From Escherichia phage LL11: a stretch of 45,185 bases of DNA. Each line of letters begins with the position of its first letter. The first letter of the stretch is position 1. The translations under genes and the position numbers were made by a program. Shown in pieces: positions 5,961 through 40,115 of this stretch. The notes under the pieces were generated by a model, which was not told where the DNA came from, did no database searches, and saw only the letters and a list, made by a program, of their open reading frames with translations. The stretch is taken from the sequence record NC_048064.1; one strand, written 5' to 3'.

Positions 5961-5983
5961 ATTTACCGGACACTATAGGATAA
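5961..5983 (+). promoter_or_regulatory. phage RNAP promoter (ATTTACCGGACACTATAGGATAA)
   Basis: Match to the window consensus ATTTACTGGACACTATAGAAGAG; first promoter downstream of the RNAP gene. Confidence 0.7.
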
Positions 5984-6123
5984 CCGTCGGAGACGGAGAG
6001 AGAAGGGAAGATAAGGATATAAAGGAAGTAATAGGTATTAAAGGTTATATAGGTTTACCTAGGAATACCTATTACCTTCTTCCTTCCTCTTATTACTACT
6101 TAGAGGAAGGGCAGACCTAAGTT
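5984..6123 (+). other. structured AT/purine-rich region between tandem phage promoters; candidate primary replication origin
   Basis: Inverted repeat GGAAGTAATAGGTATT ... AATACCTATTACCTTCC, purine-rich arm GGAGAGAGAAGGGAAG facing pyrimidine-rich arm CTTCTTCCTTCCTCTT, small hairpin CCGTCGGAGACGG; flanked by promoters at 5961 and 6145. Confidence 0.35.
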
Positions 6124-6139
6124 GTCTCACATGTGAGAC
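6124..6139 (+). repeat. hairpin palindrome (family copy 2)
   Basis: GTCTCACATGTGAGAC, perfect 16-bp palindrome, just upstream of promoter 6145. Confidence 0.7.
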
Positions 6140-6144
6140 TTCGT

Positions 6145-6167
6145 ATTTACCGGACAGTATAGATAAG
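6145..6167 (+). promoter_or_regulatory. phage RNAP promoter variant (ATTTACCGGACAGTATAGATAAG)
   Basis: Consensus match except C to G at -5; upstream of the gp1.1-like ORF. Confidence 0.5.
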
Positions 6168-6192
6168 ACTAACTTACTTTGGAGATTTAACC

Positions 6193-6321
6193 ATGCGTAA
6201 CTTTGAGAAGATGACCCGTAAAGCTAACCGTTTTGACATGGAAGAAGGGCAGACGAAAGGCAAGAAGCTGAATAAACCTGTCCGTGACCGTGCATCTAAA
6301 CGCGCAGCGTGGGAGTGCTAA
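6193..6321 (+). CDS. gp1.1-like small basic protein (42 aa)
   Basis: MRNFEKMTRKANRFDMEEGQTKGKKLNKPVRDRASKRAAWEC resembles T7 gp1.1 as I remember it; GGAGA RBS. Confidence 0.65.
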   Translation: MRNFEKMTRKANRFDMEEGQTKGKKLNKPVRDRASKRAAWEC

Positions 6322-6324
6322 GTT

Positions 6325-6762
6325 ATGGAGATATGGATGCCAGTGCTAGGGCATGAATCCTACCACGTATCAAACCTAGGCCGTGTACGAGGAAAGAATG
6401 GTAAAATCCTTAAAGCAGGCTATGCAAGAGGTTACTTAAATGTTGTATTAGACAACAAGACGTACCCTGTTCATAGACTTGTGGCTTTATCTTTCGTAGA
6501 CGGTTACGCACCTGGGTTGGTTGTCAATCATATAGATGAATGTAAACATCATAATTTTGCATTTAATTTAGAATGGGTGACACAAGCTGCTAACGTAGAA
6601 CACAGTTTGGCAACAGACTTTGTAGTGCTCGACCCTGCTGGCGTAAAATATAAAGGGCGCAACGCCTCACGATTTGCACGAGAACACGGTTTATGCCCTC
6701 GCACTTTTCGTAAAATGTTGGCTGGTCAAATTTCTCACCATAAAGGTTGGACTAAAGTATGA
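6325..6762 (+). CDS. HNH homing endonuclease (paralog 1 of 3)
   Basis: 145 aa; N-terminal MEIWMPVLGHESYHVSNLGRVRG, HRLVA motif, NH...H..N HNH core, C-terminal HHKGW; paralogous to 10030-10509 and 44079-44540. Confidence 0.8.
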   Translation: MEIWMPVLGHESYHVSNLGRVRGKNGKILKAGYARGYLNVVLDNKTYPVHRLVALSFVDGYAPGLVVNHIDECKHHNFAFNLEWVTQAANVEHSLATDFVVLDPAGVKYKGRNASRFAREHGLCPRTFRKMLAGQISHHKGWTKV

Positions 6763-8747
6763 GCATTATTCAAAACGTTGGTTGTCCTGAGTGCATGAAG
6801 AACAACCACGATAAATCGCAGAACCACTTGATGATTTTCTCCGACGGGGCTGGTTACTGCAACCGTGCACACTTCCATGATAGTGGCAGACCATACTACC
6901 ATAAGCCCGAAGGTGGCATCGAGATAACCGAGTTGCCTATTACTGGCAATATCAAATACACACCTTCTCAATTCAAAGAGATGGAGAAGGAAGGGAAGAT
7001 AAGCGACCCTAAGCTACGCGCCATCGCTCTTGGTGGTATGCGTATGAAAGATCGTTGGGAGGTCATGAATGAGCAAGAAAGGGCAGACCAAGAAGCAGAG
7101 TGGAAACTTGATGTTGAATGGTTCCTCACGCTTAAGCGTAAGAACCTTGTTTCCAGACACATTCGCGGCGACATTTGCGCATTGTATGATGTACGTGTCG
7201 GACACGATGAAGAGGGTAGAGTCTCGCGGCATTACTATCCACGCTTCGAGAAAGGTGAGCTAGTAGGAGCTAAGTGTCGCACATTACCTAAAGACTTTAA
7301 GTTTGGTCATTTAGGTAAACTCTTTGGTATGCAAGATCTTTTCGGTATGAATACTTTGTCTCACGTGTTAGACAAGGGGAGACGAAAGGATTGCTTGCTT
7401 ATTGTGGGTGGGGAACTGGATGCGCTAGCAGCGCAGCAGATGCTCCTTGATTCTGCCAAGGGTACTAAGTGGGAAGGTCAACCTTACCATGTATGGTCTG
7501 TTAACAAAGGGGAGTCTTGCCTTGAAGAGATTGTGCAGAACCGTGAACACATCGCCCAATTCAAGAAGATTATTTGGGGCTTCGATGGGGATGAGGTAGG
7601 GCAGAAGCAGAACCAGCAAGCGGCTCGCCTGTTTCCTGGCAAATCCTATATCCTTGAGTACCCTTCTGGTTGCAAAGATGCCAACAAGGCATTGATGGCT
7701 GGCAAGGCTAAAGAGTTTGTTGATGCATGGTTTAATGCCAAGTCATCTGATGAAGTCTTTGGTAGCCAGATTAAATCTATCGCATCTCAAAGGGATAAGC
7801 TCAAGGCTGCACGTCCAGAGCAAGGACTATCATGGCCTTGGCCTAAGCTGAACAAGGTAACGCTAGGTATTCGTAAGAACCAGCTTATCATTATAGGTGC
7901 AGGCTCTGGTGTAGGTAAGACTGAGTTCCTTCGTGAAGTAGTTAAGCACCTCATTGAAGAACACGGTGAATCTGTAGGCATCATTTCTACAGAAGACCCG
8001 ATGGTCAAGGTGTCCCGTGCTTTTATCGGCAAGTGGATTGATAAGCGTATTGAGTTACCGCCAACCAACGACCCGAAAGAAGATGGATACCGTGAGGTGT
8101 TCGACTACACCGAGGAAGAAGCTAACGCCGCCATTGATTATGTAGCTGATACAGGTAAGCTGTTTGTGGCTGACCTAGAGGGTGACTATTCGATGGAAAA
8201 GGTAGAGCAAACTTGCCTAGAGTTTGAGGCTATGGGCATTTCTAATATCATCATTGATAACTTAACGGGGATTAAATTAGATGAGCGTGCTTTTGGTGGG
8301 AAGGTTGGTGCACTTGATGAATGCGTCAAGCGGATTGGTACTATCAAAGACAGACATGCAGTTACTATATTCCTTGTATCACACCTTACACGTCCTCCGG
8401 CAAACCGTACCCAACACGAAGAAGGTGGCGAGGTTATCCTTTCTGACTTCCGAGGCTCAGGAGCTATCGGATTCTGGGCATCTTACGCCTTGGGGATTGA
8501 GCGTAACACAAGAGCTGAAACGCTTGATGAAAGAACTACCACGTACATCTCATGTGTCAAAGACCGCGACCAAGGTATCTGGACTGGAACCAAGGTCATG
8601 CTTAAGGGTGACATTCAAACCGGACGTTTAATGGAACCACAAGCCCGTACTAAGTCATTTGATACAGGTGAAGCAAGGCAACAAGAAGTGCCTGATTTAC
8701 CGGACACTATAGAAGAGACTAACTTCGATGAAGAAAGTGAGTTTTGA
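6759..8747 (+). CDS. DNA primase/helicase (T7 gp4-like)
   Basis: 662 aa; N-terminal zinc motif CPEC...C..AH, Walker A GAGSGVGKTE, DnaB-like C-terminal half; acidic C-terminus ending ...EESEF. Confidence 0.9.
   Translation: MSIIQNVGCPECMKNNHDKSQNHLMIFSDGAGYCNRAHFHDSGRPYYHKPEGGIEITELPITGNIKYTPSQFKEMEKEGKISDPKLRAIALGGMRMKDRWEVMNEQERADQEAEWKLDVEWFLTLKRKNLVSRHIRGDICALYDVRVGHDEEGRVSRHYYPRFEKGELVGAKCRTLPKDFKFGHLGKLFGMQDLFGMNTLSHVLDKGRRKDCLLIVGGELDALAAQQMLLDSAKGTKWEGQPYHVWSVNKGESCLEEIVQNREHIAQFKKIIWGFDGDEVGQKQNQQAARLFPGKSYILEYPSGCKDANKALMAGKAKEFVDAWFNAKSSDEVFGSQIKSIASQRDKLKAARPEQGLSWPWPKLNKVTLGIRKNQLIIIGAGSGVGKTEFLREVVKHLIEEHGESVGIISTEDPMVKVSRAFIGKWIDKRIELPPTNDPKEDGYREVFDYTEEEANAAIDYVADTGKLFVADLEGDYSMEKVEQTCLEFEAMGISNIIIDNLTGIKLDERAFGGKVGALDECVKRIGTIKDRHAVTIFLVSHLTRPPANRTQHEEGGEVILSDFRGSGAIGFWASYALGIERNTRAETLDERTTTYISCVKDRDQGIWTGTKVMLKGDIQTGRLMEPQARTKSFDTGEARQQEVPDLPDTIEETNFDEESEF
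8695..8717 (+). promoter_or_regulatory. phage RNAP promoter inside the 3' end of the helicase gene
   Basis: ATTTACCGGACACTATAGAAGAG. Confidence 0.65.
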
Positions 8748-8767
8748 TTAGTGTATTTATCAGGGCT

Positions 8768-8785
8768 TGTCTCACATGTGAGACA
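8768..8785 (+). repeat. hairpin palindrome (family copy 3)
   Basis: TGTCTCACATGTGAGACA, 21 nt after the helicase stop. Confidence 0.7.
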
Positions 8786-8823
8786 GGCTCTTATTAAGTA
8801 CATTAAATAACTGGAGATTGATT

Positions 8824-9507
8824 ATGTATAAATTAGTATTGAATGTAGGTGATTATGTTCGTAACATCAATGTAACCTCACGTAGATATCGTTGCCGTGG
8901 TACTGTGACTAATGTAAGTGAAAACAGCTACTATGTAGAGTACAGTAATGGTATTAGACAGGCTTATCAAAAGGAATCAGCACATAACTACCTTGAGAAA
9001 ATTGGAGAGGTAAGCAATCAATGTAAGTGCGTACACGATGAGATTTGCGATAAGTGTGCCCGCCAGCTGCATAAAATGCTATTATATCCTCTTCGCTATG
9101 GTGCTGGTGTTCAAACATTAGCAGAGGCATATGGCAAAAGTAAGACCACACTCAAGAAAGAGCGCCGCAATGTAATCACTGGTAAGACTCAAAGTGAAAT
9201 TATTAAACTATGTGGCACTGCATTAGGTGTTACGCAGTTTAATACTCGTTCATTGGGTAAATCCACAGGGCAAGCTATGGTAAAGATTGGCGAAGCCATG
9301 ATGCAACCAAATGTACCTGTGCGAATCGTGGATATTGACCATGCAATCACAGAGCATGGTACACCACGCCGTGTAGCTAACAATCATTTTGCCGACACTA
9401 TAGAAGACATTATTCGTAAGCAAGGGTTGAAGGGTCTTCACATCTTAAATGATGAAGAGTTACTGTACCTCCCTATTGTTACTGAAGAAACCTACGTGAG
9501 TATCTAA
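8824..9507 (+). CDS. hypothetical protein with Cys cluster (about 228 aa)
   Basis: ATG 8824 with GGAGA RBS; CKCVHDEICDKC cluster; no family recognised by eye. Confidence 0.55.
   Translation: MYKLVLNVGDYVRNINVTSRRYRCRGTVTNVSENSYYVEYSNGIRQAYQKESAHNYLEKIGEVSNQCKCVHDEICDKCARQLHKMLLYPLRYGAGVQTLAEAYGKSKTTLKKERRNVITGKTQSEIIKLCGTALGVTQFNTRSLGKSTGQAMVKIGEAMMQPNVPVRIVDIDHAITEHGTPRRVANNHFADTIEDIIRKQGLKGLHILNDEELLYLPIVTEETYVSI
9386..9408 (+). promoter_or_regulatory. weak or variant phage RNAP promoter inside ORF 8824-9507
   Basis: ATTTTGCCGACACTATAGAAGAC; core -8 to +1 conserved, -13 to -9 divergent. Confidence 0.35.
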
Positions 9508-9517
9508 GGAGTTAATC

Positions 9518-9736
9518 ATGACTAAGGTATTAATTTATATGCGTGGACCTCATAAATGCTATGCAGTTGTAGCACCAAATGGTGTTAAGCCCTATAGTAC
9601 TTCAAAAGGATTGGCATTAATAGGTGCTAGTAGTAGTGCAAGTTTCCAAATGGAACTTTCTGGTCGTTGTACTGAATGGCAATTCCGTGAGGATTTTAAA
9701 GTCATTGGCAGCTTCATGGTGAAATATGCAGAATAA
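9518..9736 (+). CDS. hypothetical protein (72 aa)
   Basis: ORF track; AAGGAG RBS upstream. Confidence 0.45.
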   Translation: MTKVLIYMRGPHKCYAVVAPNGVKPYSTSKGLALIGASSSASFQMELSGRCTEWQFREDFKVIGSFMVKYAE

Positions 9737-9902
9737 ACATAGTCTTAAAATGTTCGATGGTCATGAAGACCTGCAAGCCAAGATTACTAACCAAGCCTTC
9801 CTGTTCGCACAGTTAACTATGGCTGAAGCAAAGAAGAATAGCCTGACGCGTGAACAGGTTATCAAGGAAAGTGAAGTGAAACGTAAGATTCGCAGTCGAT
9901 AA
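9726..9902 (+). CDS. hypothetical small protein (58 aa)
   Basis: ORF overlapping the previous stop; MQNKHSLKMFDGHEDLQAKITNQ...; start uncertain (internal ATG 9750 possible). Confidence 0.3.
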   Translation: MQNKHSLKMFDGHEDLQAKITNQAFLFAQLTMAEAKKNSLTREQVIKESEVKRKIRSR

Positions 9903-9911
9903 GTCAAGGGT

Positions 9912-9929
9912 TGTCTCACGTGTGAGACA
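9912..9929 (+). repeat. hairpin palindrome (family copy 4)
   Basis: TGTCTCACGTGTGAGACA with extended GGG/CCT flanks, directly after the stop at 9902. Confidence 0.7.
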
Positions 9930-9962
9930 GCCTTTCATCATATTGATTGGAGGATTAACTTT

Positions 9963-10070
9963 ATGAATAACTACGACTCTGATTGGGATTTCTACGATTC
10001 AATGCAATCTAAACCAGAAAGGAGGGAGGATGAGTTCGAAACAGATCAAATGTACGAGGATTTTTACTAA
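9963..10070 (+). CDS. hypothetical small acidic protein (35 aa)
   Basis: ATG 9963 with GGAGGA RBS; overlaps the start of the following HNH gene in another frame. Confidence 0.25.
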   Translation: MNNYDSDWDFYDSMQSKPERREDEFETDQMYEDFY

Positions 10071-10509
10071 CTACATCCTCTACTCTGATGGTCGAGTTCT
10101 TAACGAGAAAACCGGACAATATCTAAGAGGTTACTTAGATAAAGATGGGTATCATATTATGAATATTAAAGGGAAACACCTTAAAGTTCATCGATTAGTT
10201 GCTATCCATTTCATACCTAACCCTAATAATTTACCTGAAGTTAACCATAAAGATCATGACCGTCTAAACAATAATGATTGGAACCTAGAGTGGTGTACTC
10301 ATCAAGATAACAACAAGCATAGTTTGCATTTAGTAATAGCTTCTTGTGCTAAACGCTATGACTTTATATCACCACAAGGTGTCCATGTAGAAGTCTATAA
10401 CTTACGTGAGTTTTGTAGGAATAACAACCTACAGCAATCTCATATGGTTAAGGTGGCTAAAGGTAAAGTAAGACATCATAAAGGTTGGACTAATTATGTT
10501 AGATGTTGA
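10030..10509 (+). CDS. HNH homing endonuclease (paralog 2 of 3)
   Basis: 159 aa; strong RBS AGGAGGGAGG; HRLVA, HKDHDRLNNNDWNLEW HNH core, C-terminal HHKGW; abuts and overlaps the DNA polymerase start. Confidence 0.8.
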   Translation: MSSKQIKCTRIFTNYILYSDGRVLNEKTGQYLRGYLDKDGYHIMNIKGKHLKVHRLVAIHFIPNPNNLPEVNHKDHDRLNNNDWNLEWCTHQDNNKHSLHLVIASCAKRYDFISPQGVHVEVYNLREFCRNNNLQQSHMVKVAKGKVRHHKGWTNYVRC

Positions 10510-13297: not shown

Positions 13298-13324
13298 TTA
13301 TTCCTACTTATTTTGTCTAACATG

Positions 13325-13347
13325 ATTTACTGGACACTATAGAAGGA
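13325..13347 (+). promoter_or_regulatory. phage RNAP promoter
   Basis: ATTTACTGGACACTATAGAAGGA; leader hairpin CCTAGACAATCTAGG follows. Confidence 0.75.
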
Positions 13348-13411: not shown

Positions 13412-13789
13412 ATGTCTATGGTAACTACTCTGGTATTCGTAGCTCAATACTTTCGTGGTCTTGCTAATAAGTTCAAGTCCAAGGCTATCAAAGCTATTGA
13501 GGCTCGCATCGAAGCAGTACAGTCAGAGCAAGTTAAAGTTGAAGAACATCGTAGTTCTCAAATGATTGACTGTCATAACCGCCACTATGCATCTCGTGAT
13601 GAACTAAATGCACGTCAAGTCAAAGAGGTAGAAGATATGCTGGCACGTCACCAGCAAGAGCGTGACAGCCTGAAAGCTGAATTTGAAGAGAACAAGGCAT
13701 CCATCGCCCTTGTACATCAAGCCGCATCTGACAGCCTGAAGAAAGAGATTGTTATGCTGGAAATTGAGTTAGACAACCTGACCAAATAA
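13412..13789 (+). CDS. hypothetical coiled-coil protein (125 aa)
   Basis: ORF track; AGGAGAG RBS; hydrophobic N-terminus then charged helical sequence. Confidence 0.5.
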   Translation: MSMVTTLVFVAQYFRGLANKFKSKAIKAIEARIEAVQSEQVKVEEHRSSQMIDCHNRHYASRDELNARQVKEVEDMLARHQQERDSLKAEFEENKASIALVHQAASDSLKKEIVMLEIELDNLTK

Positions 13790-13810
13790 TTACGGGACAC
13801 TATAGAACAA
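13788..13810 (+). promoter_or_regulatory. phage RNAP promoter with conserved structured leader
   Basis: AATTACGGGACACTATAGAACAA, then a 22-nt hairpin and the 13-mer TGATTGTGTAGTG shared with the promoter at 18117. Confidence 0.7.
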
Positions 13811-14673: not shown

Positions 14674-14682
14674 GGAGAAAGG

Positions 14683-14902: not shown

Positions 14903-14918
14903 GTCTCACGTGTGAGAC
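14903..14918 (+). repeat. hairpin palindrome (family copy 5)
   Basis: GTCTCACGTGTGAGAC, 2 nt after the stop at 14901 and 16 nt before promoter 14934. Confidence 0.7.
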
Positions 14919-14933: not shown

Positions 14934-14956
14934 ATTTACTGGACACTATAGAAGAG
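14934..14956 (+). promoter_or_regulatory. phage RNAP promoter (exact window consensus)
   Basis: ATTTACTGGACACTATAGAAGAG. Confidence 0.8.
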
Positions 14957-15006: not shown

Positions 15007-15378
15007 ATGTTCAAGATTGAAACTATCGTAAACCGTGTTGTTAAAGGTGCTGCTCTGGTATCCGTTGAGTCTTTCATTATCGTCGATGAAGCTGATCAAC
15101 TGGTAGCTGGTACTAAGGCTTACGATACCCGTGAAGAAGCTCAGGCTAAGATTGACAGCATGGGTAACTTCGCTGCTGGTCTGGAGTTCGCTCGTGCTTG
15201 CTTCCCTGAGCAGGCTGACAAAGCTCAGATTGGTAAGGCTAATATCGTAGCTGAATATCTGGATTGGGTTGCTGCTGGTAAACCAGTGAAAGAAGTTAAG
15301 GCTGCTGAAGAAGCTGAAGCTCCAGCAGAAGAAGTAGCTGCACCGGAAACTCCGGTAAGCGAAGAGGAAGAATTTTGA
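15007..15378 (+). CDS. hypothetical highly acidic protein (123 aa) ending ...EEEEF
   Basis: Monocistronic unit: consensus promoter at 14934, AAAGGAGA RBS, terminator at 15437; codon usage like highly expressed genes; acidic C-terminal tail ending in Phe. Confidence 0.6.
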   Translation: MFKIETIVNRVVKGAALVSVESFIIVDEADQLVAGTKAYDTREEAQAKIDSMGNFAAGLEFARACFPEQADKAQIGKANIVAEYLDWVAAGKPVKEVKAAEEAEAPAEEVAAPETPVSEEEEF

Positions 15379-15436: not shown

Positions 15437-15470
15437 GCCCTGTCTGCCTTAGTGTAGGCAGGGTCTTTTG
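15437..15470 (+). terminator. rho-independent terminator
   Basis: GC-rich stem-loop CCCTGTCTGCC...GGCAGGG followed by TCTTTTG. Confidence 0.65.
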
Positions 15471-17122: not shown

Positions 17123-18122
17123 GCTTCGCAGCTTGTACAAAGACTCCGAGGTACTTGATGCAATCGAGCAAGCTACCGACGAGAAAGGTAATGTTAATTA
17201 CAATGAGATGGCACGTGTATTATCGTGTCACCCTGTGGGTAAGAAGATTACCCGCCAGTTGGCTCGATACTGGCATGGTCAATTCAAGAAGACCAAGAAG
17301 AATGGTGATTATTACCAGACTCTTCTGCAAGAAGATAAGCGTATCAAAGAAGAGCGTAAGCTCAGGACTCCTGACCGCTACGAGGATTTGGCTATTGTGC
17401 CATTGCCTGACTCGCCTCATCGAAGTGTACTGGTGATCCCTGATACTCATGCACCTTATGAGCACCCAGATACCCTAGAGTTCCTTGCAGCCGTGGCAGC
17501 ACGTTACCGTCCAGACACAGTGGTACACCTAGGAGATGAGGCAGACAAACATGCCCTGTCATTCCATGATTCGGATCCAAATTTGGACAGTGCTGGCATG
17601 GAGTTAGAGAAAGCTCGTGTCTTCATGCACAAGTTGCACAAGATGTTTCCTGTGATGCGCCTGTGTCACTCTAATCACGGCTCTATGCACTTCCGTAAGG
17701 CAAGCGCCAAGGGTATTCCAGTGCAATATCTTCGTACCTACCGAGAAGTCTTCTTCCCGCAGGGAGGTGGCGACCAGTGGGATTGGCAGCATACGCATGT
17801 ACTTGAGTTGCCGAATGGCGAACAGGTGGCATTCAAGCATCAACCTGCTGGCTCGGTCCTAGCAGATGCAGCGCATGAGCGTATGAATCTTGTGTGTGGT
17901 CACTTGCATGGTAAGATGTCTGTGGAGTACGCACGTAATACACATGAACAGTATTGGGCTGTGCAGGGTGGCTGCTTAATTGATGAGTCATCCCGTGCAT
18001 TTGCCTATGGGCGTGAGTCTAAATACAAGCCAGCATTAGGTTGTGTGGTTATTCTGGAAGGTGTGCCTCATATTGTCCCGATGCAAACCAATAGCAACAA
18101 TCGCTGGATTGGTAAGATTTAG
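17115..18122 (+). CDS. metallophosphoesterase (calcineurin-like phosphatase)
   Basis: Motifs VIPDTHAPYEH, HLGDEAD, CHSNHG, CGHLHG; start taken as TTG 17115, 6 nt after AGGAGG (in-frame ATG at 17208 is the alternative); the track start 16983 overlaps the resolvase gene. Confidence 0.7.
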   Translation: MGKLRSLYKDSEVLDAIEQATDEKGNVNYNEMARVLSCHPVGKKITRQLARYWHGQFKKTKKNGDYYQTLLQEDKRIKEERKLRTPDRYEDLAIVPLPDSPHRSVLVIPDTHAPYEHPDTLEFLAAVAARYRPDTVVHLGDEADKHALSFHDSDPNLDSAGMELEKARVFMHKLHKMFPVMRLCHSNHGSMHFRKASAKGIPVQYLRTYREVFFPQGGGDQWDWQHTHVLELPNGEQVAFKHQPAGSVLADAAHERMNLVCGHLHGKMSVEYARNTHEQYWAVQGGCLIDESSRAFAYGRESKYKPALGCVVILEGVPHIVPMQTNSNNRWIGKI

Positions 18123-18139
18123 TTGACACTATAGAACAA
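18117..18139 (+). promoter_or_regulatory. phage RNAP promoter, SP6-like variant
   Basis: ATTTAGTTGACACTATAGAACAA overlapping the phosphoesterase stop; followed by hairpin AGGGCAGG-TACTAG-CTTGCCCT and the shared 13-mer TGATTGTGTAGTG. Confidence 0.7.
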
Positions 18140-23073: not shown

Positions 23074-23096
23074 ATTTACTGGACACTATAGAAGGG
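23074..23096 (+). promoter_or_regulatory. phage RNAP promoter for the major capsid gene
   Basis: ATTTACTGGACACTATAGAAGGG followed by leader hairpin GGGAGAAAAGTTCTCCC. Confidence 0.8.
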
Positions 23097-23146: not shown

Positions 23147-24346
23147 ATGTCTACACCGAATACTCTGACTAACGTTGCTGTATCTGCGTCCGGTGAGGTT
23201 GACAGCCTTCTCATTGAGAAGTTTAATGGTAAGGTCAATGAGCAGTACCTGAAAGGTGAGAACATTCTGTCTTACTTTGATGTACAAACTGTTACTGGCA
23301 CTAACACAGTGAGCAACAAATATTTGGGCGAAACTGAGTTGCAGGTGCTAGCACCGGGTCAGTCTCCTAATGCCACCCCTACTCAGGCGGATAAAAACCA
23401 GTTGGTAATTGATACCACTGTCATTGCTCGTAACACTGTGGCCCACATCCACGATGTACAAGGTGACATCGATAGCCTGAAACCAAAACTGGCTATGAAC
23501 CAAGCCAAGCAACTGAAACGTCTGGAGGACCAGATGGCAATTCAGCAGATGCTGTTAGGCGGTATTGCTAACACCAAGGCCAAACGTAACAAGCCGCGTG
23601 TTAAAGGGCATGGATTCTCTATCAACGTTAACGTAACTGAGAGTGAAGCACTGGCTAACCCTCAGTATGTTATGGCTGCGGTAGAGTATGCTCTGGAGCA
23701 ACAGCTTGAGCAGGAAGTGGATATCTCTGATGTAGCGATTCTGATGCCGTGGAAATTCTTCAACTCTCTGCGTGACGCAGACCGCATTGTAGATAAGACT
23801 TACACTATTAGTCAGTCCGGTGCTACTATCAGTGGCTTTGTTCTGTCTTCCTACAACTGCCCTGTTATCCCGTCTAACCGATTCCCGACATTTGTACAGG
23901 GTGCTCCACATCACTTACTGTCTAACGAAGATAACGGTTATCGTTATGACCCTACCGCAAAGATGAACGGCGCTGTAGCTGTGCTGTTTACTGCTGATGC
24001 ATTGCTGGTAGGTCGCACCATTGAAGTAACAGGTGACATCTTCTATGAGAAGAAAGAGAAGACTTATTATATTGATACCTTCATGGCTGAAGGTGCAATC
24101 CCTGACCGCTGGGAGGCTGTGTCTGTAGTTACCACTAAACGCGACGAAACCTCTGGTGCTGCTCTTGGTAAAGGCGACGATCACGACACTGTACTGGCTC
24201 GTGCACAGCGTAAGGCTGTCTACGTCAAGACCGCAGGTGCTGCCGCATTATCCGCTGCTAGCCTGCAAGCAGAAGACTTAGTAGCCGCTGTACGTGCTGT
24301 AATGGCTAATGACGTCAAGCCGACTGCACTGAAACCTACTGAGTAA
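23147..24346 (+). CDS. major capsid protein
   Basis: 399 aa; dedicated promoter, strong RBS AAGGAGA, highly-expressed codon usage, terminator immediately downstream. Confidence 0.9.
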   Translation: MSTPNTLTNVAVSASGEVDSLLIEKFNGKVNEQYLKGENILSYFDVQTVTGTNTVSNKYLGETELQVLAPGQSPNATPTQADKNQLVIDTTVIARNTVAHIHDVQGDIDSLKPKLAMNQAKQLKRLEDQMAIQQMLLGGIANTKAKRNKPRVKGHGFSINVNVTESEALANPQYVMAAVEYALEQQLEQEVDISDVAILMPWKFFNSLRDADRIVDKTYTISQSGATISGFVLSSYNCPVIPSNRFPTFVQGAPHHLLSNEDNGYRYDPTAKMNGAVAVLFTADALLVGRTIEVTGDIFYEKKEKTYYIDTFMAEGAIPDRWEAVSVVTTKRDETSGAALGKGDDHDTVLARAQRKAVYVKTAGAAALSAASLQAEDLVAAVRAVMANDVKPTALKPTE

Positions 24347-24355
24347 TAACCTATG

Positions 24356-24390
24356 CCCTATCTACCTTGCGTAGGTAGGGTTCTTTTGTT
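24356..24390 (+). terminator. rho-independent terminator after the major capsid gene
   Basis: CCCTATCTACC-TTGCG-TAGGTAGGG stem-loop followed by TTCTTTTGTTT. Confidence 0.75.
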
Positions 24391-31216: not shown

Positions 31217-31260
31217 GTTATACTCAAGGTTTGTCTCACATGTGAGACATGCCTTTATGA
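31217..31260 (+). promoter_or_regulatory. conserved stop-adjacent element GTTATACTCAAGGT-hairpin-GCCTTTATGAAT (copy 2)
   Basis: Same flanking boxes as 13257-13297; here the hairpin is the palindrome TGTCTCACATGTGAGACA (31232-31249, family copy 6). Confidence 0.5.
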
Positions 31261-35086: not shown

Positions 35087-36045
35087 TGAGTTACACATTC
35101 ACTGAACATACAGCGAATGGCACTCAAACTACTTTCCCCTTCCGGTTCGCTGGGAGAGACAAGGGGTACTTGAGGGCTTCTGATATTTTAGTTGAAGTAA
35201 GAAATGATGGCGTGTGGAACACAGTAAGTGGTTGGACACTTACAGGTACTAACCAGATAACCTTTAATGTACCGCCAGCGGCAAATACAAAACTTCGTAT
35301 CAGGCGCGTTGTAGAGAAAGAAGAACCTTACGCCGAGTTTGACCGTGGTGTAACCTTGGATATGAAATCTCTCAATAACTCCTTTATACATCTTTTGGAA
35401 GTATCTCAGGAGCTACTGGATGGTTTCTATCCAGATGGTTACTTTGTAAAGCAAGAGGTATCTTGGGGTGGACATAAGATTACTGATTTGGCTGATGGCA
35501 CAAATCCGGGAGATGCAGTAAATAAAGGACAGCTTGATTCCATCGACAAGAAGCATACAGATTGGAACGCCAAACAGGACATTGAGATTGCTGGTCTTAA
35601 AGCTGGTATGACTTCTGGTATTGCGCACAGAACTGTTCCTTGGTACACGATAGCCCAAGGTGGTGAGATTTCCGTAAAGCCCCCTTATGAATTTCAAGAT
35701 GCACTAGTTTTCCTTAATGGGGTATTACAGCACCAAATTGTAGGCGCATACTCTATAAGCAACAACACTATCACTTTCGCAGAGCCGCTTGTGGCTGGTA
35801 CAGAGGTGTATGTGTTGGTAGGTAGTCGTGTTGCTACATCTGAACCTAATATTCAGTTAGAGTTGAATTTTGACTTAGTAGAAGGCCAACAAGTAGTAAA
35901 GATTGGCTCTGCATTTAAGTATATTGAGGTTTATCTTGATGGACTATTACAACCTAAACTTACTTATCGGGTAGATGGTGACACTGTTACTTTCTCAGAG
36001 GGAGTGCCAGAATGCCGGATGACTGCTAAGATTATCACAGAATAA
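35086..36045 (+). CDS. tail fibre / tailspike adaptor protein (gp17 N-terminal domain-like)
   Basis: 319 aa; ATG 35086 overlapping the gp16-like stop; N-terminal region typical of T7 gp17-like tail attachment domains; no enzymatic domain. Confidence 0.75.
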   Translation: MSYTFTEHTANGTQTTFPFRFAGRDKGYLRASDILVEVRNDGVWNTVSGWTLTGTNQITFNVPPAANTKLRIRRVVEKEEPYAEFDRGVTLDMKSLNNSFIHLLEVSQELLDGFYPDGYFVKQEVSWGGHKITDLADGTNPGDAVNKGQLDSIDKKHTDWNAKQDIEIAGLKAGMTSGIAHRTVPWYTIAQGGEISVKPPYEFQDALVFLNGVLQHQIVGAYSISNNTITFAEPLVAGTEVYVLVGSRVATSEPNIQLELNFDLVEGQQVVKIGSAFKYIEVYLDGLLQPKLTYRVDGDTVTFSEGVPECRMTAKIITE

Positions 36046-36054
36046 GGAGGTGGG

Positions 36055-36249
36055 ATGATTAACTCCGAACTGGTAGATAGTGGTGTGAAGCTTGCGCCAC
36101 CTGCACTCGTATCAGGTGGGTACTTCCTCGGTATCAGTTGGGATAATTGGGTGTTAATAGCAACATTCATTTATACCGTGTTGCAAATTGGGGACTGGTT
36201 TTATAATAAGTTCAAGATTTGGAGGGAGAAGCGTGAGCGTACACAATAA
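36055..36249 (+). CDS. holin (T7 gp17.5-like, class II)
   Basis: 64 aa; one transmembrane helix WVLIATFIYTVLQIG and a charged C-terminus; pattern parallels T7 gp17.5 from memory. Confidence 0.7.
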   Translation: MINSELVDSGVKLAPPALVSGGYFLGISWDNWVLIATFIYTVLQIGDWFYNKFKIWREKRERTQ

Positions 36250-36532
36250 ACATGCAGCTACAGAGGATGAGGTTGGCATTCTGCATGGTGCTATTACCAA
36301 AATCTTCAATAAGAAAGCACAGGCAATACTGGACACTATAGAAGAAGACCCTGATGCAGCATTACATTTAGTGTCTGGTAAGGATATTGGTGCGATGTGT
36401 AAGTGGGTTCTTGATAACGGCATTACCGCCACACCTGCTGCACAGCAGGAAGAGTCCAAGTTATCTAAGCGCCTCAAGGCTATCAGAGAGGCATCCAGTG
36501 GTAAGATAATTCAATTCACTAAGGAGGGTTGA
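36233..36532 (+). CDS. terminase small subunit (gp18-like)
   Basis: GTG 36233 preceded by GGAGGGAG; about 99 aa; immediately upstream of the large terminase gene; no ATG available near the 5' end. Confidence 0.6.
   Translation: MSVHNKHAATEDEVGILHGAITKIFNKKAQAILDTIEEDPDAALHLVSGKDIGAMCKWVLDNGITATPAAQQEESKLSKRLKAIREASSGKIIQFTKEG
36324..36346 (+). promoter_or_regulatory. phage RNAP promoter inside the small terminase gene
   Basis: CAATACTGGACACTATAGAAGAA; positions -13 to +6 match consensus. Confidence 0.5.
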
Positions 36533-38430
36533 TGGCTAAGGCAAGAGAATCACAAGCAGAGGCTCTTGCCAGATGGGAGATGCTACAGGAGTTACAGCAG
36601 ACCTTTCCGTACACATCGGAAGGTTTGCTTCTCTTTGCAGACACAGTTATTCATAACTTGATTGCAGGCAACCCTCATCTGATTCGTATGCAGGCTGATA
36701 TCTTGAAGTTCCTATTCTACGGACACAAGTACCGCCTCATCGAAGCGCCTCGTGGTATCGCTAAGACAACACTATCAGCAATCTATACGGTATTCCGTAT
36801 TATTCATGAACCGCATAAGCGTATCATGGTTGTGTCCCAAAACGCCAAGCGAGCAGAGGAAATCGCAGGTTGGGTAGTTAAAATCTTCCGTGGCTTAGAC
36901 TTTCTTGAGTTTATGCTGCCGGATATCTACGCTGGGGACCGTGCATCCGTTAAGGCGTTTGAGATTCATTACACCCTACGTGGTAGTGATAAGTCTCCTT
37001 CTGTATCCTGTTACTCAATCGAAGCAGGTATGCAGGGTGCTCGTGCTGATATTATTCTAGCGGATGACGTAGAGTCGATGCAGAATGCTCGTACGGCAGC
37101 GGGCCGTGCCTTGCTTGAGGAACTGACTAAGGAGTTTGAATCTATCAACCAGTTTGGGGATATCATTTACCTTGGTACACCTCAGAACGTAAACTCTATC
37201 TACAACAACCTACCTGCTCGTGGTTACTCTGTTCGTATCTGGACTGCGCGTTACCCTTCAGTAGAGCAAGAGCAATGTTATGGCGACTTCCTTGCACCTA
37301 TGATTGTTCAAGATATGAAGGACAACCCAGCACTTCGCTCAGGGTACGGGTTGGATGGTAATAGTGGTGCACCTTGTGCCCCTGAAATGTATGATGATGA
37401 AGTCCTGATTGAGAAGGAAATCTCTCAGGGTGCTGCTAAGTTCCAGCTTCAGTTCATGCTTAACACTCGCATGATGGATGCTGACAGATACCCATTACGC
37501 CTGAACAATCTAATCTTCACCTCGTTTGGTACAGAGGAAGTCCCTGTGATGCCTACGTGGAGTAATGATTCCATAAACATCATTGGTGATGCACCTAAGT
37601 ATGGTAACAAGCCTACGGATTTCATGTACAGACCTGTAGCTCGCCCATACGAATGGGGTGCTGTCTCCCGCAAGATTATGTATATCGACCCTGCGGGTGG
37701 TGGTAAGAACGGAGATGAGACGGGTGTAGCCATCGTATTCCTGCACGGCACATTCATTTATGTGTATAAGTGCTTTGGTGTACCTGGCGGATACCGAGAG
37801 TCGTCCCTGAATCGCATTGTGCAGGCCGCAAAGCAGGCTGGTGTTAAAGAGGTATTCATTGAGAAGAACTTTGGTCATGGCGCGTTTGAGGCGGTAATTA
37901 AGCCGTACTTTGAACGAGAGTGGCCTGTAACTCTGGAAGAGGATTACGCCACCGGACAGAAAGAGTTGCGTATCATTGAGACGCTGGAGCCGCTCATGGC
38001 AGCCCATAGGCTTATCTTCAATGCAGAGATGGTGAAGTCAGACTTTGAGTCGGTACAGCACTATCCGCTTGAACTACGCATGTCCTACAGTCTTTTCAAT
38101 CAAATGTCGAACATAACGATTGAGAAGAACAGCCTCCGGCACGATGACCGCCTAGACGCCCTGTATGGCGCTATACGGCAATTAACTTCTCAGATAGACT
38201 ATGACGAGGTTACTCGAATTAATCGCCTCAGAGCGCAGGAGATGCGTGATTATATACAGGCGATGAATACACCTAGGCTTCGTCGGGCCATGCTGTACGG
38301 TGATTATGGTGATGAGCGAAGAACAACTAACACCTCTCTAGCGATGCAGCAGAGGGTTTACGGGCAGGACTACCGAAATAAATCGGCAAGCAGAAATACA
38401 CTTTCTGCAAGGATTTCAAGGACTTATTAA
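36532..38430 (+). CDS. terminase large subunit (gp19-like)
   Basis: 632 aa; ATPase N-terminal domain with Walker A-like APRGIAKT and nuclease C-terminal domain; AAGGAGG RBS. Confidence 0.93.
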   Translation: MAKARESQAEALARWEMLQELQQTFPYTSEGLLLFADTVIHNLIAGNPHLIRMQADILKFLFYGHKYRLIEAPRGIAKTTLSAIYTVFRIIHEPHKRIMVVSQNAKRAEEIAGWVVKIFRGLDFLEFMLPDIYAGDRASVKAFEIHYTLRGSDKSPSVSCYSIEAGMQGARADIILADDVESMQNARTAAGRALLEELTKEFESINQFGDIIYLGTPQNVNSIYNNLPARGYSVRIWTARYPSVEQEQCYGDFLAPMIVQDMKDNPALRSGYGLDGNSGAPCAPEMYDDEVLIEKEISQGAAKFQLQFMLNTRMMDADRYPLRLNNLIFTSFGTEEVPVMPTWSNDSINIIGDAPKYGNKPTDFMYRPVARPYEWGAVSRKIMYIDPAGGGKNGDETGVAIVFLHGTFIYVYKCFGVPGGYRESSLNRIVQAAKQAGVKEVFIEKNFGHGAFEAVIKPYFEREWPVTLEEDYATGQKELRIIETLEPLMAAHRLIFNAEMVKSDFESVQHYPLELRMSYSLFNQMSNITIEKNSLRHDDRLDALYGAIRQLTSQIDYDEVTRINRLRAQEMRDYIQAMNTPRLRRAMLYGDYGDERRTTNTSLAMQQRVYGQDYRNKSASRNTLSARISRTY

Positions 38431-38451
38431 TTACTGGACACTATAGAAGGA
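38429..38451 (+). promoter_or_regulatory. phage RNAP promoter overlapping the terminase stop
   Basis: AATTACTGGACACTATAGAAGGA. Confidence 0.75.
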
Positions 38452-38523
38452 AGGCCCAGATAATAAGAGAAAATAATAGGTAATATATAGGTTAACCTAG
38501 GTTATATAGGTATGCCTTAGTAT

Positions 38524-38543
38524 GGGTGTACTCCTGTACACCC
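38524..38543 (+). other. perfect hairpin GGGTGTAC-TCCT-GTACACCC in late leader
   Basis: 8-bp perfect stem with 4-nt loop, downstream of an AT-rich stretch that shares AGGTTATATAGGT with the origin-like region at 6042-6054. Confidence 0.4.
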
Positions 38544-38587
38544 TATTCCTTACTTCCTTACTATATTTACATAATAGGAGAGAGACA

Positions 38588-38866
38588 ATGGCTAATGATT
38601 ATAGTAGTCAACCATTAACAGGTAAGTCTAAGAGAAAGCAGGTACAACCTGTAAGTGAAGAACTAATGCTTCCGGTAATCCCAAAAGAGGAAGCTAGTAA
38701 GAAAATCAATGTTATTAATGATGCCACCAAATCAGGTAAACAGAAAGGGGCCATGGTGTGCCTTGAAGTGGAAGGTGGTGTATTGAAGATTGCTATCGCG
38801 GTTGATGGCAAAGAAGATTCAGAGTGGAAGTTAGTAACAGTGGAAACCCCTGTTACCCCAGTTTAA
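38588..38866 (+). CDS. hypothetical late protein, paralog A (92 aa)
   Basis: ATG 38588 with AGGAGAGAG RBS; shares the block SGKQKGAMV-LE and a C-terminal ...VTP... with the next ORF. Confidence 0.55.
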   Translation: MANDYSSQPLTGKSKRKQVQPVSEELMLPVIPKEEASKKINVINDATKSGKQKGAMVCLEVEGGVLKIAIAVDGKEDSEWKLVTVETPVTPV

Positions 38867-38883
38867 GAGAAGGAGGAGATTAC

Positions 38884-39171
38884 ATGGCTAAATATGGTGA
38901 AGGTTCTGTTACTGGTCAGGCTTTTCGAGTAAAAGCAGTACAAACTATTGCAACGGCAATCCCGATGCCTGTTGTTAAAGAAGCAGACCTTAAGAGAAAA
39001 GATCACCCTATCAACATCAAACACCTGTCAGGTAAGCAGAAAGGTGCAATGGTTGCTCTTGAGAAAGATGACACAACCATGCATATTGCTGTTGCACGTG
39101 GCAGTGAACCCACAGACTCATGGGATGTAACTGGTATGGAAGAGGCCGCTGTTACTCCAGCAGGGGAATAA
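38884..39171 (+). CDS. hypothetical late protein, paralog B (95 aa)
   Basis: ATG 38884 with AAGGAGGAG RBS; tandem paralog of 38588-38866. Confidence 0.55.
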   Translation: MAKYGEGSVTGQAFRVKAVQTIATAIPMPVVKEADLKRKDHPINIKHLSGKQKGAMVALEKDDTTMHIAVARGSEPTDSWDVTGMEEAAVTPAGE

Positions 39172-39173
39172 TA

Positions 39174-39518
39174 ATGCTTAATAAATACTTCAAGCGTAAA
39201 GAGTTTGCTTGCCGTTGTGGGTGCGGTACATCTACTGTTGATGCTGAATTACTACAGGTAGTCACAGATGTGCGTGAGCACTTTGGTTCTCCTGTAGTTA
39301 TCACATCGGGACATCGCTGTATTAAGCACAATGCCAATGTAGGTGGAGCTAAGAACTCCATGCATCTTACTGGTAAGGCTGCTGACATTAAAGTGTCTGG
39401 CATATTACCTTCTGAAGTGCATAAGTATCTTACTAGCAAATACCAAGGCAAGTATGGTATCGGTAAGTATAACTCCTTCACTCACATCGATGTACGGGAT
39501 GGTTGTGCGCGATGGTAA
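39174..39518 (+). CDS. peptidase M15-type zinc peptidase (putative endolysin)
   Basis: 114 aa; SGHRC...N, GGAKNSMHLTGKAADI and HID blocks match the zinc ligands of M15/VanY-like cell-wall peptidases; N-terminal CxCGCG motif. Confidence 0.75.
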   Translation: MLNKYFKRKEFACRCGCGTSTVDAELLQVVTDVREHFGSPVVITSGHRCIKHNANVGGAKNSMHLTGKAADIKVSGILPSEVHKYLTSKYQGKYGIGKYNSFTHIDVRDGCARW

Positions 39519-39626
39519 GATGTGTTGAATGATGTGAGCGTATGGTTGCCCAAGCTGCCGAGGATGGCAACTATGATGACTGGAAGAACTACTCTGACTT
39601 GTTAGCTCAATGGAAAGGGAGATGCA

Positions 39627-39776
39627 ATGAAAAAGCTGTTTAAGTCTAAGAAGGTTGTAGGTGCACTGGTTGCACTTGTTATTGCTCTTGTTTCTGTAGG
39701 TCTTGGTGTAGACCTTGGCTCTGGCACGGAATCCTCTGTGACAGATGTGGTCTGCCAAGTGATCACCTGTGAATAA
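39627..39776 (+). CDS. small membrane protein (49 aa), possible lysis accessory
   Basis: MKKLFKSKKVVGALVALVIALVSVGLGV... with one transmembrane helix; between endolysin and spanins. Confidence 0.4.
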   Translation: MKKLFKSKKVVGALVALVIALVSVGLGVDLGSGTESSVTDVVCQVITCE

Positions 39777-39990
39777 GTTTCTAGAAGTTCTGGCAGGTCT
39801 TATTGGCCTGCTTGTCTCTGCTAAGAAGAAACAAGAAGAGAAGGAGGCACAAAGTGAAGCGAATCATGTTAGTGACAACCCTTCTGATTGGTTCGCTGAC
39901 CACTTCCGGGTGTCAGCAGGCGTTACCAGAGAAAGCAATGGTGAAACCTCTGAGGCCGACGCTGACGGAAGTTTACGAGGTAGACGATAA
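39769..39990 (+). CDS. putative i-spanin (Rz-like)
   Basis: N-terminal transmembrane helix FLEVLAGLIGLLV followed by a charged periplasmic region; contains the start of an overlapping lipoprotein ORF in the +1 frame. Confidence 0.5.
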   Translation: MNKFLEVLAGLIGLLVSAKKKQEEKEAQSEANHVSDNPSDWFADHFRVSAGVTRESNGETSEADADGSLRGRR

Positions 39991-40063
39991 GGTCTGCTTT
40001 AGTAATCCTGACGCTACAAAACTTGGTTTGTACATTCTCTCGCTAGAACGCGGATACAATTAA
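39854..40063 (+). CDS. putative o-spanin (Rz1-like lipoprotein), overlapping the i-spanin
   Basis: GTG 39854 6 nt after AGGAGG; signal-like KRIMLVTTLLIGSLTTSG followed by Cys (lipobox-like); extends beyond the i-spanin stop. Confidence 0.5.
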   Translation: MKRIMLVTTLLIGSLTTSGCQQALPEKAMVKPLRPTLTEVYEVDDKVCFSNPDATKLGLYILSLERGYN

Positions 40064-40092
40064 TACATAGCTTTATGTATCAGTGTCTTATG

Positions 40093-40115
40093 ATTTACTG
40101 GACACTATAGAAGAG
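40093..40115 (+). promoter_or_regulatory. phage RNAP promoter for the tailspike genes (exact consensus)
   Basis: ATTTACTGGACACTATAGAAGAG followed by leader hairpin GCGCCGTTC-TTTT-GAGCGGC. Confidence 0.8.

Follow-up and report, generated by a model that had tools for sequence, protein, structure and literature searches.

Promoters of Escherichia phage LL11 as a probable K1-5/K1E-type set read by a polymerase with a Ser-type specificity loop

Introduction

Why the promoters of Escherichia phage LL11 (NC_048064.1) depart from the SP6 promoter at three bases, in the region predicted to be read by the specificity loop of the RNA polymerase, and why several variants of them coexist, is the question raised by positions 5961-40115 of the stretch of DNA analyzed here (the window, 45,185 nucleotides in its entirety). 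Judging from sequence comparisons, the window holds the entire genome of a Vectrevirus of the K1-5/K1E group. Many Vectrevirus records match it at about 91-92% nucleotide identity, and the best match of its right half is phage NTNC80A. The promoters are not annotated as features in any GenBank record examined for comparison, and a search of the whole window against Rfam families returned no match.

The expected reader of the promoters is a single-subunit phage RNA polymerase of 875 residues, recognized by homology and encoded on the + strand at 3242-5869. It shares 99.8% amino acid identity with the polymerase of DIJ06P1, 99.2% with that of K1-5, 98.5% with that of K1E, 85.6% with that of SP6 and 31% with that of T7. 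The reading favored here, with a probability of about 85%, is that the motif represents the normal K1-5/K1E-type promoter set, read by the phage's own T7-type polymerase via its Ser-type loop, and that the variants are in part tolerated and in part an early/late arrangement.

The Promoter Motif

The motif is 21 bases long, with ATTTACTGGACACTATAGAAG as its consensus, and is numbered with the G of GAAG as +1. At up to three mismatches the consensus has 10 matches, all on the + strand, with 0.00 expected from shuffled sequences, and the core GACACTATAG has 16 matches at up to one mismatch against 3.3 expected. A wider scan collects 12 promoter-like sites within 5961-40115 and two upstream of it, all of them likewise on the + strand. 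Nine of the 12 start sites in range are intergenic, and seven stand 25-76 bp ahead of a long ORF. At each listed site, the phage polymerase is predicted to start transcription at the G of GAAG. The idea that the motif is an artefact of chance or repetition, namely a repeat scattered along the genome and irrelevant to transcription, is effectively refuted, and its probability is negligible. Besides their excess over chance, the matches are all on the coding strand and mostly 25-110 bp ahead of genes, their -8 to +1 core is the same as in the experimentally defined SP6 promoter, the genome has a cognate polymerase gene, and the K1E polymerase and K1E promoter serve as an expression system (PMC6412113).

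A sequence-only reading of this DNA had set the motif against the SP6 promoter. The SP6 genome itself (AY370673) reads ATTTAGGTGACACTATAGAAG, in agreement with the form used there, and the three-base change falls at -12, -11 and -10. The variants listed along with it, ACCGG (5961, 6145, 8695), ACGGG (13788), AGTTG (18117) and GCCGA (9386), were all found again at their positions on rescanning. It had also described one main form as shared by most promoters; the motif is real, but CTGG at -12 to -9 occurs at 6 of the 12 sites in range, four of which (13325, 14934, 23074 and 40093) are exact consensus copies. None of the promoters listed in the window reads GGTG, and T, C and G occupy -11 at 6, 5 and 2, respectively, of the 13 sites of a relaxed scan in the window.

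Sites Along the Genome

Both of the upstream sites lie outside 5961-40115. The promoter-like ATTTAGCTGACACTATAAGAG (1874-1894), upstream of the gene 5-6-polymerase block, has A and not G at the expected start; all Vectrevirus genomes have such a "TATAAGA" variant, as do SP6, K1-ULIP33, phD2B, PP1 and KPN7, with genus-specific recognition bases in each. The site at 2222 is degenerate, reading TCATTATA where K1-5 has ACACTATA. Terminator-like hairpins follow the polymerase gene (5877-5900), the gp18-homolog ORF 15007-15378 (15437-15464, a strong one) and the major capsid gene (24355-24381). The first promoter past the polymerase gene (ATTTACCGGACACTATAGGAT, CCGG, 5961-5981) is intergenic, 61 bp past the first of these hairpins, and its CCGG and GGAT are kept in 8/8 Vectrevirus genomes. 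The second (ATTTACCGGACAGTATAGATA, CCGG, 6145-6165) has a core change, G at -5 (ACAGTATA), and the orthologous site is deviant too in SP6, K1-ULIP33, phD2B, PM93 and PP1. They are followed by ATTTACCGGACACTATAGAAG (CCGG, 8695-8715), within the 3' end of the primase/helicase gene, and by the promoter-like ATTTTGCCGACACTATAGAAG (GCCG, with ATTTT upstream, 9386-9406), within ORF 8818-9507, which is kept in K1-5, ACG-C91 and Raoultella P3a.

Further along, consensus promoters stand 70 bp ahead of ORF 13412 (13325-13345) and ahead of the gp18-homolog ORF (14934-14954), and between them lies AATTACGGGACACTATAGAAC (CGGG, 13788-13808), whose ortholog reads CTGG in five relatives. The promoter ATTTAGTTGACACTATAGAAC (GTTG, 18117-18137) is one base off the SP6 consensus, and its GTTG is kept in 8/8 Vectrevirus genomes. 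A consensus promoter (23074-23094) precedes the major capsid gene (23147-24346), and two CTGG promoters bracket the large terminase gene: CAATACTGGACACTATAGAAG (CAATA upstream, 36324-36344), upstream of it within the small-terminase ORF, and AATTACTGGACACTATAGAAG (AATTA upstream, 38429-38449), past it. The consensus promoter at 40093-40113, 25 bp ahead of the first tailspike gene (40135-42093), marks the junction of the tailspike-cassette exchange.

Some of these sites, the candidates being 9386, 36324, 6145, 1874 and 2222, might be conserved look-alikes and not working promoters, a possibility of some weight although not the favored one. The starts of 8695, 9386 and 36324 fall within ORFs, and 9386 is 627 bp away from the next long ORF; the G at -5 of the 6145 site, the TATAAGAG of the 1874 site and the degenerate form of the 2222 site, where K1-5 has ACACTATA, point the same way. 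On the other hand, all except 2222 are kept across the genus, and sites of the 1874 and 6145 types are kept across several genera despite high divergence around them. Phages of the T7 group, moreover, often have promoters within gene 3' ends, which also counts against look-alikes.

Conservation in Vectrevirus

K1-5, K1E and five further Vectrevirus genomes, among them NIC06P3, DIJ06P1, ACG-C91 and Raoultella P3a, have these promoters and variants at matching junctions, and so do six IMG/VR contigs with a Ser-type loop. K1-5 (AY370674, 2004) and K1E (AM084415, 2006) have the consensus ATTTACTGGACACTATAGAAG in common with LL11, and their sites correspond one to one with those of the window, with identical flanks (e.g., tgagactt-ATTTACCGG and aattcagt-ATTTACTGG), and at nearly every junction the variant is the same too; the specificity loops are identical, and the polymerases are 98.5-99.2% identical. 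LL11 differs from them by its 13788 site (CGGG, as against CTAG in K1-5 and CTGG in K1E), its degenerate 2222 site, two extra HNH endonuclease genes and different tailspikes. The consensus repeat, the junctions and the Ser-type loop of the K1-5/K1E-type set are thus all present in the window. The features of the SP6 (Zindervirus) set, GGTG with an invariant G at -11 and Arg at the position of T7 N748, are absent from it. SP6 resembles LL11 by ATTTA at -17 to -13, by GACACTATAGAAG at -9 to +4 and by the number and placement of its promoters, but it has GGT at -12 to -10 where LL11 has CTG; SP6 and K1-ULIP33, both with an Arg-type loop, carry a GGTG consensus at orthologous places.

The three-base change and the coexisting variants are both real, but they belong to a standard conserved Vectrevirus set and are not peculiar to LL11. 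The difference from SP6 is a genus-wide trait that is already in the literature and is not new, as the promoter set is carried by the GenBank genomes of 2004 and 2006 and by the open literature, in which K1E and SP6 form separate clusters of polymerase-promoter residues and bases (2025, PMC11880802). The promoter finding re-derives the known K1-5/K1E consensus and its known difference from SP6, and as such it matters little.

The Specificity Loop and the Base at -11

The β-hairpin specificity loop of the T7 polymerase works in the major groove, where it reads approximately -12 to -7, with N748 reading -11 and -10. Alignment of the LL11 polymerase with those of SP6, T7 and T3 places the 34 codons of the loop at 5444-5545 (+ strand), with Ser747 (5480-5482) facing T7 N748 and SP6 R746. 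A PDB search found no structure of an SP6-type polymerase, the closest being T7, and the putative assignment of Ser or Arg to a base rests on the alignment to T7 at 31% identity. According to the sequence-only reading, the promoter difference would be ordinary if SP6 itself had the same consensus and the same loop; both differ in SP6, the loop by Arg746 in place of Ser747.

The loop is identical in 7/7 Vectrevirus genomes compared, and Arg occupies the Ser747 position in SP6 and K1-ULIP33. At the remaining two key positions, those of T7 R756 and Q758, LL11 and SP6 alike have K and S. Four further loop differences between the two phages are conservative (D/E, E/D, I/V and V/I), and relative to SP6 only a conservative K-to-R change lies near the AT-rich loop region. 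These other loop differences, or differences elsewhere in the polymerase, could also contribute to promoter preference.

Base -11 is G in 21/21 Arg-type sites, whereas the 85 Ser-type sites have T (46), C (33), G (4) or A (2). Ser versus Arg at the T7-N748 position tracks the loss of the invariant G, a tidy comparative addition to what is known of these enzymes. In a further six genera, polymerases with Arg or Lys are paired with a purine at -12/-11, and those with Ser are paired with C at -12. KPN7, however, has Arg, yet T at -11, and the pairing of Arg with G(-11) is therefore not universal. The homologous T7 polymerase-promoter complex suggests that the LL11 loop reads about -12 to -7. In Arg-type enzymes, Arg probably contacts G at -11 in a base-specific manner; with Ser in its place the requirement for that G would be gone, the preferred bases would move from GGT to C-T/C-G with several bases tolerated at -12 to -10, and -9 to -1 would remain fixed. 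In the N748D (T3-like) switch of T7, one residue at this position likewise accompanies altered bases at -12 to -10, as is well established (see also PMC11880802), although the promoter sequences of T7 and LL11 differ and their polymerases are only 31% identical. The K1E and SP6 enzymes are reported to break the residue-base rules that the T7-like majority follows (PMC11880802). The Ser/Arg correlation could guide the engineering of orthogonal polymerase/promoter pairs in the SP6 family.

Coexistence of Promoter Variants

To account for the variants, either a polymerase of relaxed specificity or a graded hierarchy of promoter strengths had been proposed. Each is partly supported, but they are not alternatives, and neither is novel. 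Relaxed specificity finds support at -12 to -10, first in the range of bases at -11 in Ser-type sets and second in the free exchange of C and T at -11 between orthologous Vectrevirus promoters. DIJ06P1 shows a swap of CCGG and CTGG at its capsid promoter, K1E and ACG-C91 show one at their post-terminase promoter, and CGGG, CTGG and CTAG interchange among genomes at the 13788 site; compared as sequences, such swaps look near-neutral. NIC06P3, which has a Ser-type polymerase, carries an imported SP6-type GGTG promoter ahead of its tailspike gene, the promoter and leader being 94-98% identical to those of Klebsiella K1-ULIP33-like phages, and one IMG/VR Ser-type contig also has a GGTG promoter ahead of its tailspike gene. 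Lastly, the polymerase of a close relative, "No. 2049," uses both promoter types in vitro (2026, PMC13029058). Its source genome is 91.8% identical to phage NTNC80A, and its cognate promoter is TATTTACTGGACACTATAGG... (PMC13029058). Its signal was 3.5% with the SP6 promoter and about 2% with its own consensus, in low-activity assays with templates that differ downstream of +1 as well (PMC13029058).

The hierarchy is supported by the distribution of the variants, in that sites other than CTGG make up 6 of the 8 early/middle sites and none of the 4 late ones (hypergeometric p = 0.03). As in T7, where class III (late) promoters are on consensus and class II (early/middle) promoters are off it, the late promoters of LL11 keep to the consensus form and the early/middle ones deviate; the hierarchy is imperfect, two middle sites, 13325 and 14934, being consensus promoters. 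The orthologous SP6 promoters likewise deviate from the SP6 consensus. Relative promoter strengths are predictions from sequence.

A stricter version of this hierarchy, in which CTGG is strongly preferred and every promoter with other bases at -12 to -10 is weakened on purpose so as to set gene dosage, as in T7 class II, is unlikely. It fits the early/middle location of all non-CTGG sites, the deviant SP6 orthologs, and the conservation, across most or all Vectrevirus genomes, of GTTG, GCCG and the CCGG of three early sites at orthologous positions. It fits poorly with the seemingly near-neutral swaps at the capsid, post-terminase and 13788 promoters, with the GGTG promoter ahead of the essential tailspike gene in NIC06P3 and in the IMG/VR contig, and with a related polymerase at least as active on the SP6 promoter as on its own consensus (PMC13029058). 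The favored reading combines both explanations: since a Ser-type polymerase would tolerate several bases, the coexisting variants are probably in part tolerated, near-neutral variation and in part a conserved early/middle versus late arrangement similar to T7 classes II and III, in which the late promoters (capsid, terminase, tailspike) match the consensus and those right past the polymerase gene deviate, among other places within the core and from +2 to +4.

The Same Promoter in E. coli Prophages

Among 5426 complete E. coli genomes, 585 also carry a perfect copy of ATTTACTGGACACTATAGAAG within lambdoid prophages. The prophage unit, a module of roughly 380 bp, consists of the 16-bp palindrome of the phage family, the promoter, a phage-style ribosome-binding site and an always-intact ORF of 40 codons, in that order, and lies between the lysis genes and the HNH-terminase, antisense to the late operon of the prophage. 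In GTDB species representatives, ATTTANNNGACACTATAGAAG has 21 matches, none of them enterobacterial, close to the roughly 17 estimated by chance; two of the 21 are cloning-vector contamination.

Promoter identity might matter in host-prophage conflict if such units were devices triggered by the phage polymerase, either as abortive-infection traps or for hijacking by the prophage, a proposal that is speculative and quite improbable at present. No description of a polymerase-sensing prophage device of this kind was found in the literature searched. Such devices, through the pressure that they exert, could be part of the reason why promoter specificity keeps shifting between close phages (Arg to Ser, GGT to CTG). 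Roughly one complete E. coli genome in nine carries the promoter within a prophage, and if the units are functional, bacteria or prophages would sense the RNA polymerase of a lytic phage itself; this side observation could matter more than the promoter set.

Megablast matched neither of the prophage loci L077 and L131 to any E. coli genome or phage record, and the small ORF has no tblastn match. L131, a prophage locus related to the unit above, carries tandem T7-type and SP6/K1-5-type promoters ahead of a 39-codon ORF and is the only such locus found in a scan for tandem T7-type and SP6-type promoters. Each allele of the palindrome resembles, over six bases, the promoter bases of the other polymerase type.

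Promoters of the K1-5/K1E-type genome

The promoters of the LL11 genome constitute the ordinary, already described set of a K1-5/K1E-type phage, together with a polymerase residue that co-varies with them. The genome of K1-5 was released in 2004 and that of K1E in 2006, and the K1E promoter has been compared with those of T7 and SP6 (PMC4099482). The K1E and K1-5 polymerases have been used with their own promoters, their identity to the SP6 polymerase being given as 85% (PMC6412113). K1E and SP6 were also placed in separate clusters of key residues and promoter bases, both departing from the rules of the T7 family (PMC11880802), and the promoter has been printed and tested against that of SP6 (PMC13029058).

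Sequence comparison places the genome as a complete one of the K1-5/K1E type (Autographiviridae, Molineuxvirinae, Vectrevirus), an assignment that follows from nucleotide matches across both halves and from polymerase identities. The first 25 kb matched 147 phage records in a nucleotide search, the best being Vectrevirus and K1-5/K1E-like Escherichia phages, with ~91-92% identity over at least 90% of the query; the right-hand 20 kb gave the same pattern, with phage NTNC80A on top. The single-subunit RNA polymerase of 875 residues (3242-5869, + strand), recognized by protein identity to phage polymerases, is 99.8% identical to that of DIJ06P1, 99.2% to K1-5, 98.5% to K1E, 85.6% to SP6 and 31% to T7.

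The 21-mer of the sequence-only reading, searched with up to three mismatches, yielded 10 matches in the window, all on the + strand, where none is expected by chance, and wider scans raised the number of promoter-like sites between 5961 and 40115 to 12. From -17 to +4, the promoters at 13325, 14934, 23074 and 40093 have the consensus, with CTGG at -12 to -9; CTGG is also found at 36324 (CAATACTGGACACTATAGAAG) and 38429 (AATTACTGGACACTATAGAAG). The other sites carry CCGG (5961, ATTTACCGGACACTATAGGAT; 6145, ATTTACCGGACAGTATAGATA; 8695, ATTTACCGGACACTATAGAAG), CGGG (13788, AATTACGGGACACTATAGAAC), GTTG (18117, ATTTAGTTGACACTATAGAAC) or, at the promoter-like site 9386, GCCG (ATTTTGCCGACACTATAGAAG), all on the + strand. 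The coordinates and variants first reported were all correct; the CTGG form, attributed to most promoters, accounts for 6 of the 12 sites. The SP6 consensus, read off the SP6 genome itself, is ATTTAGGTGACACTATAGAAG; the consensus given for SP6 in the sequence-only reading and the numbering of the divergent bases as -12 to -10 were therefore right. Among the 12 start sites, nine fall between genes: seven lie 25-76 bp ahead of a long ORF, and the remaining intergenic ones are two tandem sites 3' of the polymerase gene.

An AT-rich stretch (~5985-6100) separates those tandem promoters (5961-6165). The primary replication origin of T7 consists of the tandem phi1.1A/B promoters and an AT-rich region, which this arrangement may recall. 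To the left of the range, on the + strand, the wider scans revealed a degenerate promoter-like site at 2222. Another such site, at 1874-1894 (ATTTAGCTGACACTATAAGAG), has an extra A at its start (...ACACTATAAGAG) and precedes the block formed by genes 5 and 6 and the polymerase gene. Its 'TATAAGA' form, with genus-specific recognition bases, occurs in all Vectrevirus genomes, SP6, K1-ULIP33, phD2B, PP1 and, twice, KPN7; sites of this type could provide weak positive feedback on the polymerase gene.

The promoter set is a trait of the genus and not a peculiarity of this genome. The consensus is common to the window and to K1-5 (AY370674), K1E (AM084415), NIC06P3, DIJ06P1, ACG-C91 and Raoultella phage P3a, and these six relatives share its variants at matching junctions. 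Directly 3' of the polymerase gene stand CCGG with GGAT and then CCGG with ACAGTATA; the primase/helicase gene ends with a CCGG site, and the gene that follows it contains ATTTT-GCCG. GTTG precedes the gp23 homologue, and CTGG precedes the genes for capsid, terminase and tailspike. The spectrum of variants is the same in six IMG/VR contigs that have this polymerase loop. GGTG-type promoters occupy the orthologous places in SP6 and Klebsiella phage K1-ULIP33, where these early junctions carry deviants of their own (AGGG, CGTG, AGTG).

Covariation with the polymerase specificity loop

Polymerases were aligned with T7 numbering anchored on R746. The specificity loop (nt 5444-5545), whose comparison with that of SP6 had been proposed along with the sequence-only reading, differs from it at seven positions, one change alone being non-conservative; Ser747 (nt 5480-5482) aligns with SP6 Arg746 and T7 Asn748. 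In T7, Asn748 reads -11/-10, and Asp at this position confers T3-like specificity. The key role of T7 positions 748, 756 and 758 has been restated (PMC11880802); at 756 and 758, the window polymerase and SP6 alike have Lys and Ser. The loop is invariant among seven Vectrevirus genomes.

Across genera, the residue equivalent to T7 N748 is Arg in SP6, K1-ULIP33, phD2B, PM93 and KPN7, Lys in PP1, and Ser in Era103. Arg or Lys is paired with a purine at -12/-11 (GG in SP6, phD2B and PP1, A/G-A in PM93), and Ser with a -12 C (Vectrevirus has CT, Era103 CC); KPN7, which combines Arg with G/C-T, is an exception at -11. Base -11 is G in all 21 sites of SP6 and K1-ULIP33. Over the 85 sites of the seven Vectrevirus genomes, -11 is T in 46, C in 33, G in 4 and A in 2, and -12 is C in 65 and G in 19. 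We infer that Arg would contact G(-11) and that Ser would remove the need for it.

Relaxed reading or promoter hierarchy

The coexisting variants had been ascribed to either relaxed specificity or graded promoter strength, and the observations suggest that each is partly right. Tolerance at -12 to -10 is favored by exchanges between orthologues: CTGG and CCGG replace one another at the capsid promoter (DIJ06P1) and at the post-terminase promoter (K1E, ACG-C91), and CGGG, CTGG and CTAG do so at the 13788 site. In the same direction, NIC06P3, with its Ser-type polymerase, has a perfect SP6-type promoter, ATTTAGGTGACACTATAGAAG, ahead of its tailspike gene (4575-4595 of its locus, L008), as does one Ser-type IMG/VR contig. 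Homology between NIC06P3 and the window (40093-40113) breaks no more than ~10 bp upstream of this promoter, which together with its leader is 94-98% identical to K1-ULIP33-like Klebsiella phages; the tailspike promoter seems to act as a recombination joint for tailspike cassettes. Tolerance is also favored by published data on polymerase 'No. 2049', whose source genome is 91.8% identical to NTNC80A and whose chosen promoter is TATTTACTGGACACTATAGGAGGA: its signal was 3.5% with the SP6 promoter, ~2% with its own consensus and 0.18% with an unrelated one (PMC13029058).

A hierarchy, for its part, is favored by position. The six non-CTGG sites are all among the eight early/middle promoters, while the late promoters have CTGG in four of four cases (p = 0.03 by our own arithmetic). 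In several genera, deviations at -5 or in the +2 to +4 segment also mark the two promoters 3' of the polymerase gene, and terminator-like hairpins are found 3' of the polymerase, gp18 and capsid genes, as in T7.

A palindrome family with two alleles

A 16-bp palindrome, GTCTCAC-RY-GTGAGAC, is present in six copies (5943-5958, 6124-6139, 8769-8784, 9913-9928, 14903-14918 and 31233-31248), with 0.18 expected, and in one more with two mismatches (7358-7373). Promoters 5961, 6145 and 14934 each have a copy upstream, at distances of 2, 5 and 15 bp, respectively. Those at 8769, 9913 and 31233 form, on folding, the cores of 12-13-bp RNA hairpins (-15 to -20 kcal/mol), with G-U pairs in their stems, directly ahead of ribosome-binding sites. 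A copy also immediately precedes each of two HNH homing-endonuclease ORFs, 6325-6762 (NUMOD4 and HNH_3) and 10030-10509 (HNH_3), both of which K1-5 lacks there. The palindrome, for which neither a publication nor an Rfam family was found, is conserved across Molineuxvirinae. It has two alleles: Vectrevirus and Era103 (Ser-type polymerase) carry GTCTCAC, and GTCCAAC occurs in SP6, K1-ULIP33, phD2B, PM93, PP1 and KPN7 (Arg or Lys).

Promoter-bearing cassettes in prophages

While the promoter finding itself is of low interest, prophage cassettes deserve a separate look. When IMG/VR was scanned for the promoter, ~50 prophage-like contigs of isolate genomes came up, and each contains a single conserved unit (L028:1372-1605, + strand; also, for example, L019, L022, L023, L025, L038 and L116). 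The unit is present at L135:4001-4421 and L134:488-820 as well. An extended hairpin containing the palindrome, in either allele, is followed by a 14-nt spacer, a perfect Vectrevirus promoter (ATTTACTGGACACTATAGAAG; CTTG in a few copies), a leader, an AAGGAGG ribosome-binding site and a 40-codon ORF (MFHSTNHQAV...), intact in 45 of 45 copies. The carriers are E. coli and Shigella prophages of the lambdoid type. In them this ~380-bp module, whose flanks diverge, has the lysis genes (in some cases with bor) on one side and HNH-terS-terL on the other, and it is antisense to the late operon. Of 5426 complete E. coli genomes, 585 contain it at a coverage of at least 80%, without annotation. The unit is possibly a device that senses a phage polymerase.

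In a related prophage locus, L131 (minus strand, ~8560-9480 in locus coordinates), the T7-type promoter-like ATTAACGACTCACTATAGGGGG, a GTCCAAC palindrome and ATTTACGGGACACTATAGAAG stand in tandem ahead of a 39-codon ORF, the sole instance of a dual-promoter arrangement in IMG/VR. This locus and L077 (unit on the minus strand at ~1600-1870) also have a ATTTAGGGG version ahead of small hydrophobic ORFs, the second unit of L131 carrying ATTTAGGGGACACTATAGAAG, and their small ORFs have the motif IVE..C..L....K(H/R)YG in common. The units of both loci and the prophage cassettes might represent polymerase-triggered traps, hijacks or relics of recombination. Two GTDB contigs, from Methyloglobulus morosus KoM1 (L146, ~3991) and Rhodobacteraceae IMCC1909 (L152, ~3979), have the same string, ATTACGCCAAGCTCTAATACGACTCACTATAGGGAAAGCTGGTACGCCTG, with an SP6 promoter, which looks like cloning-vector contamination of public assemblies.
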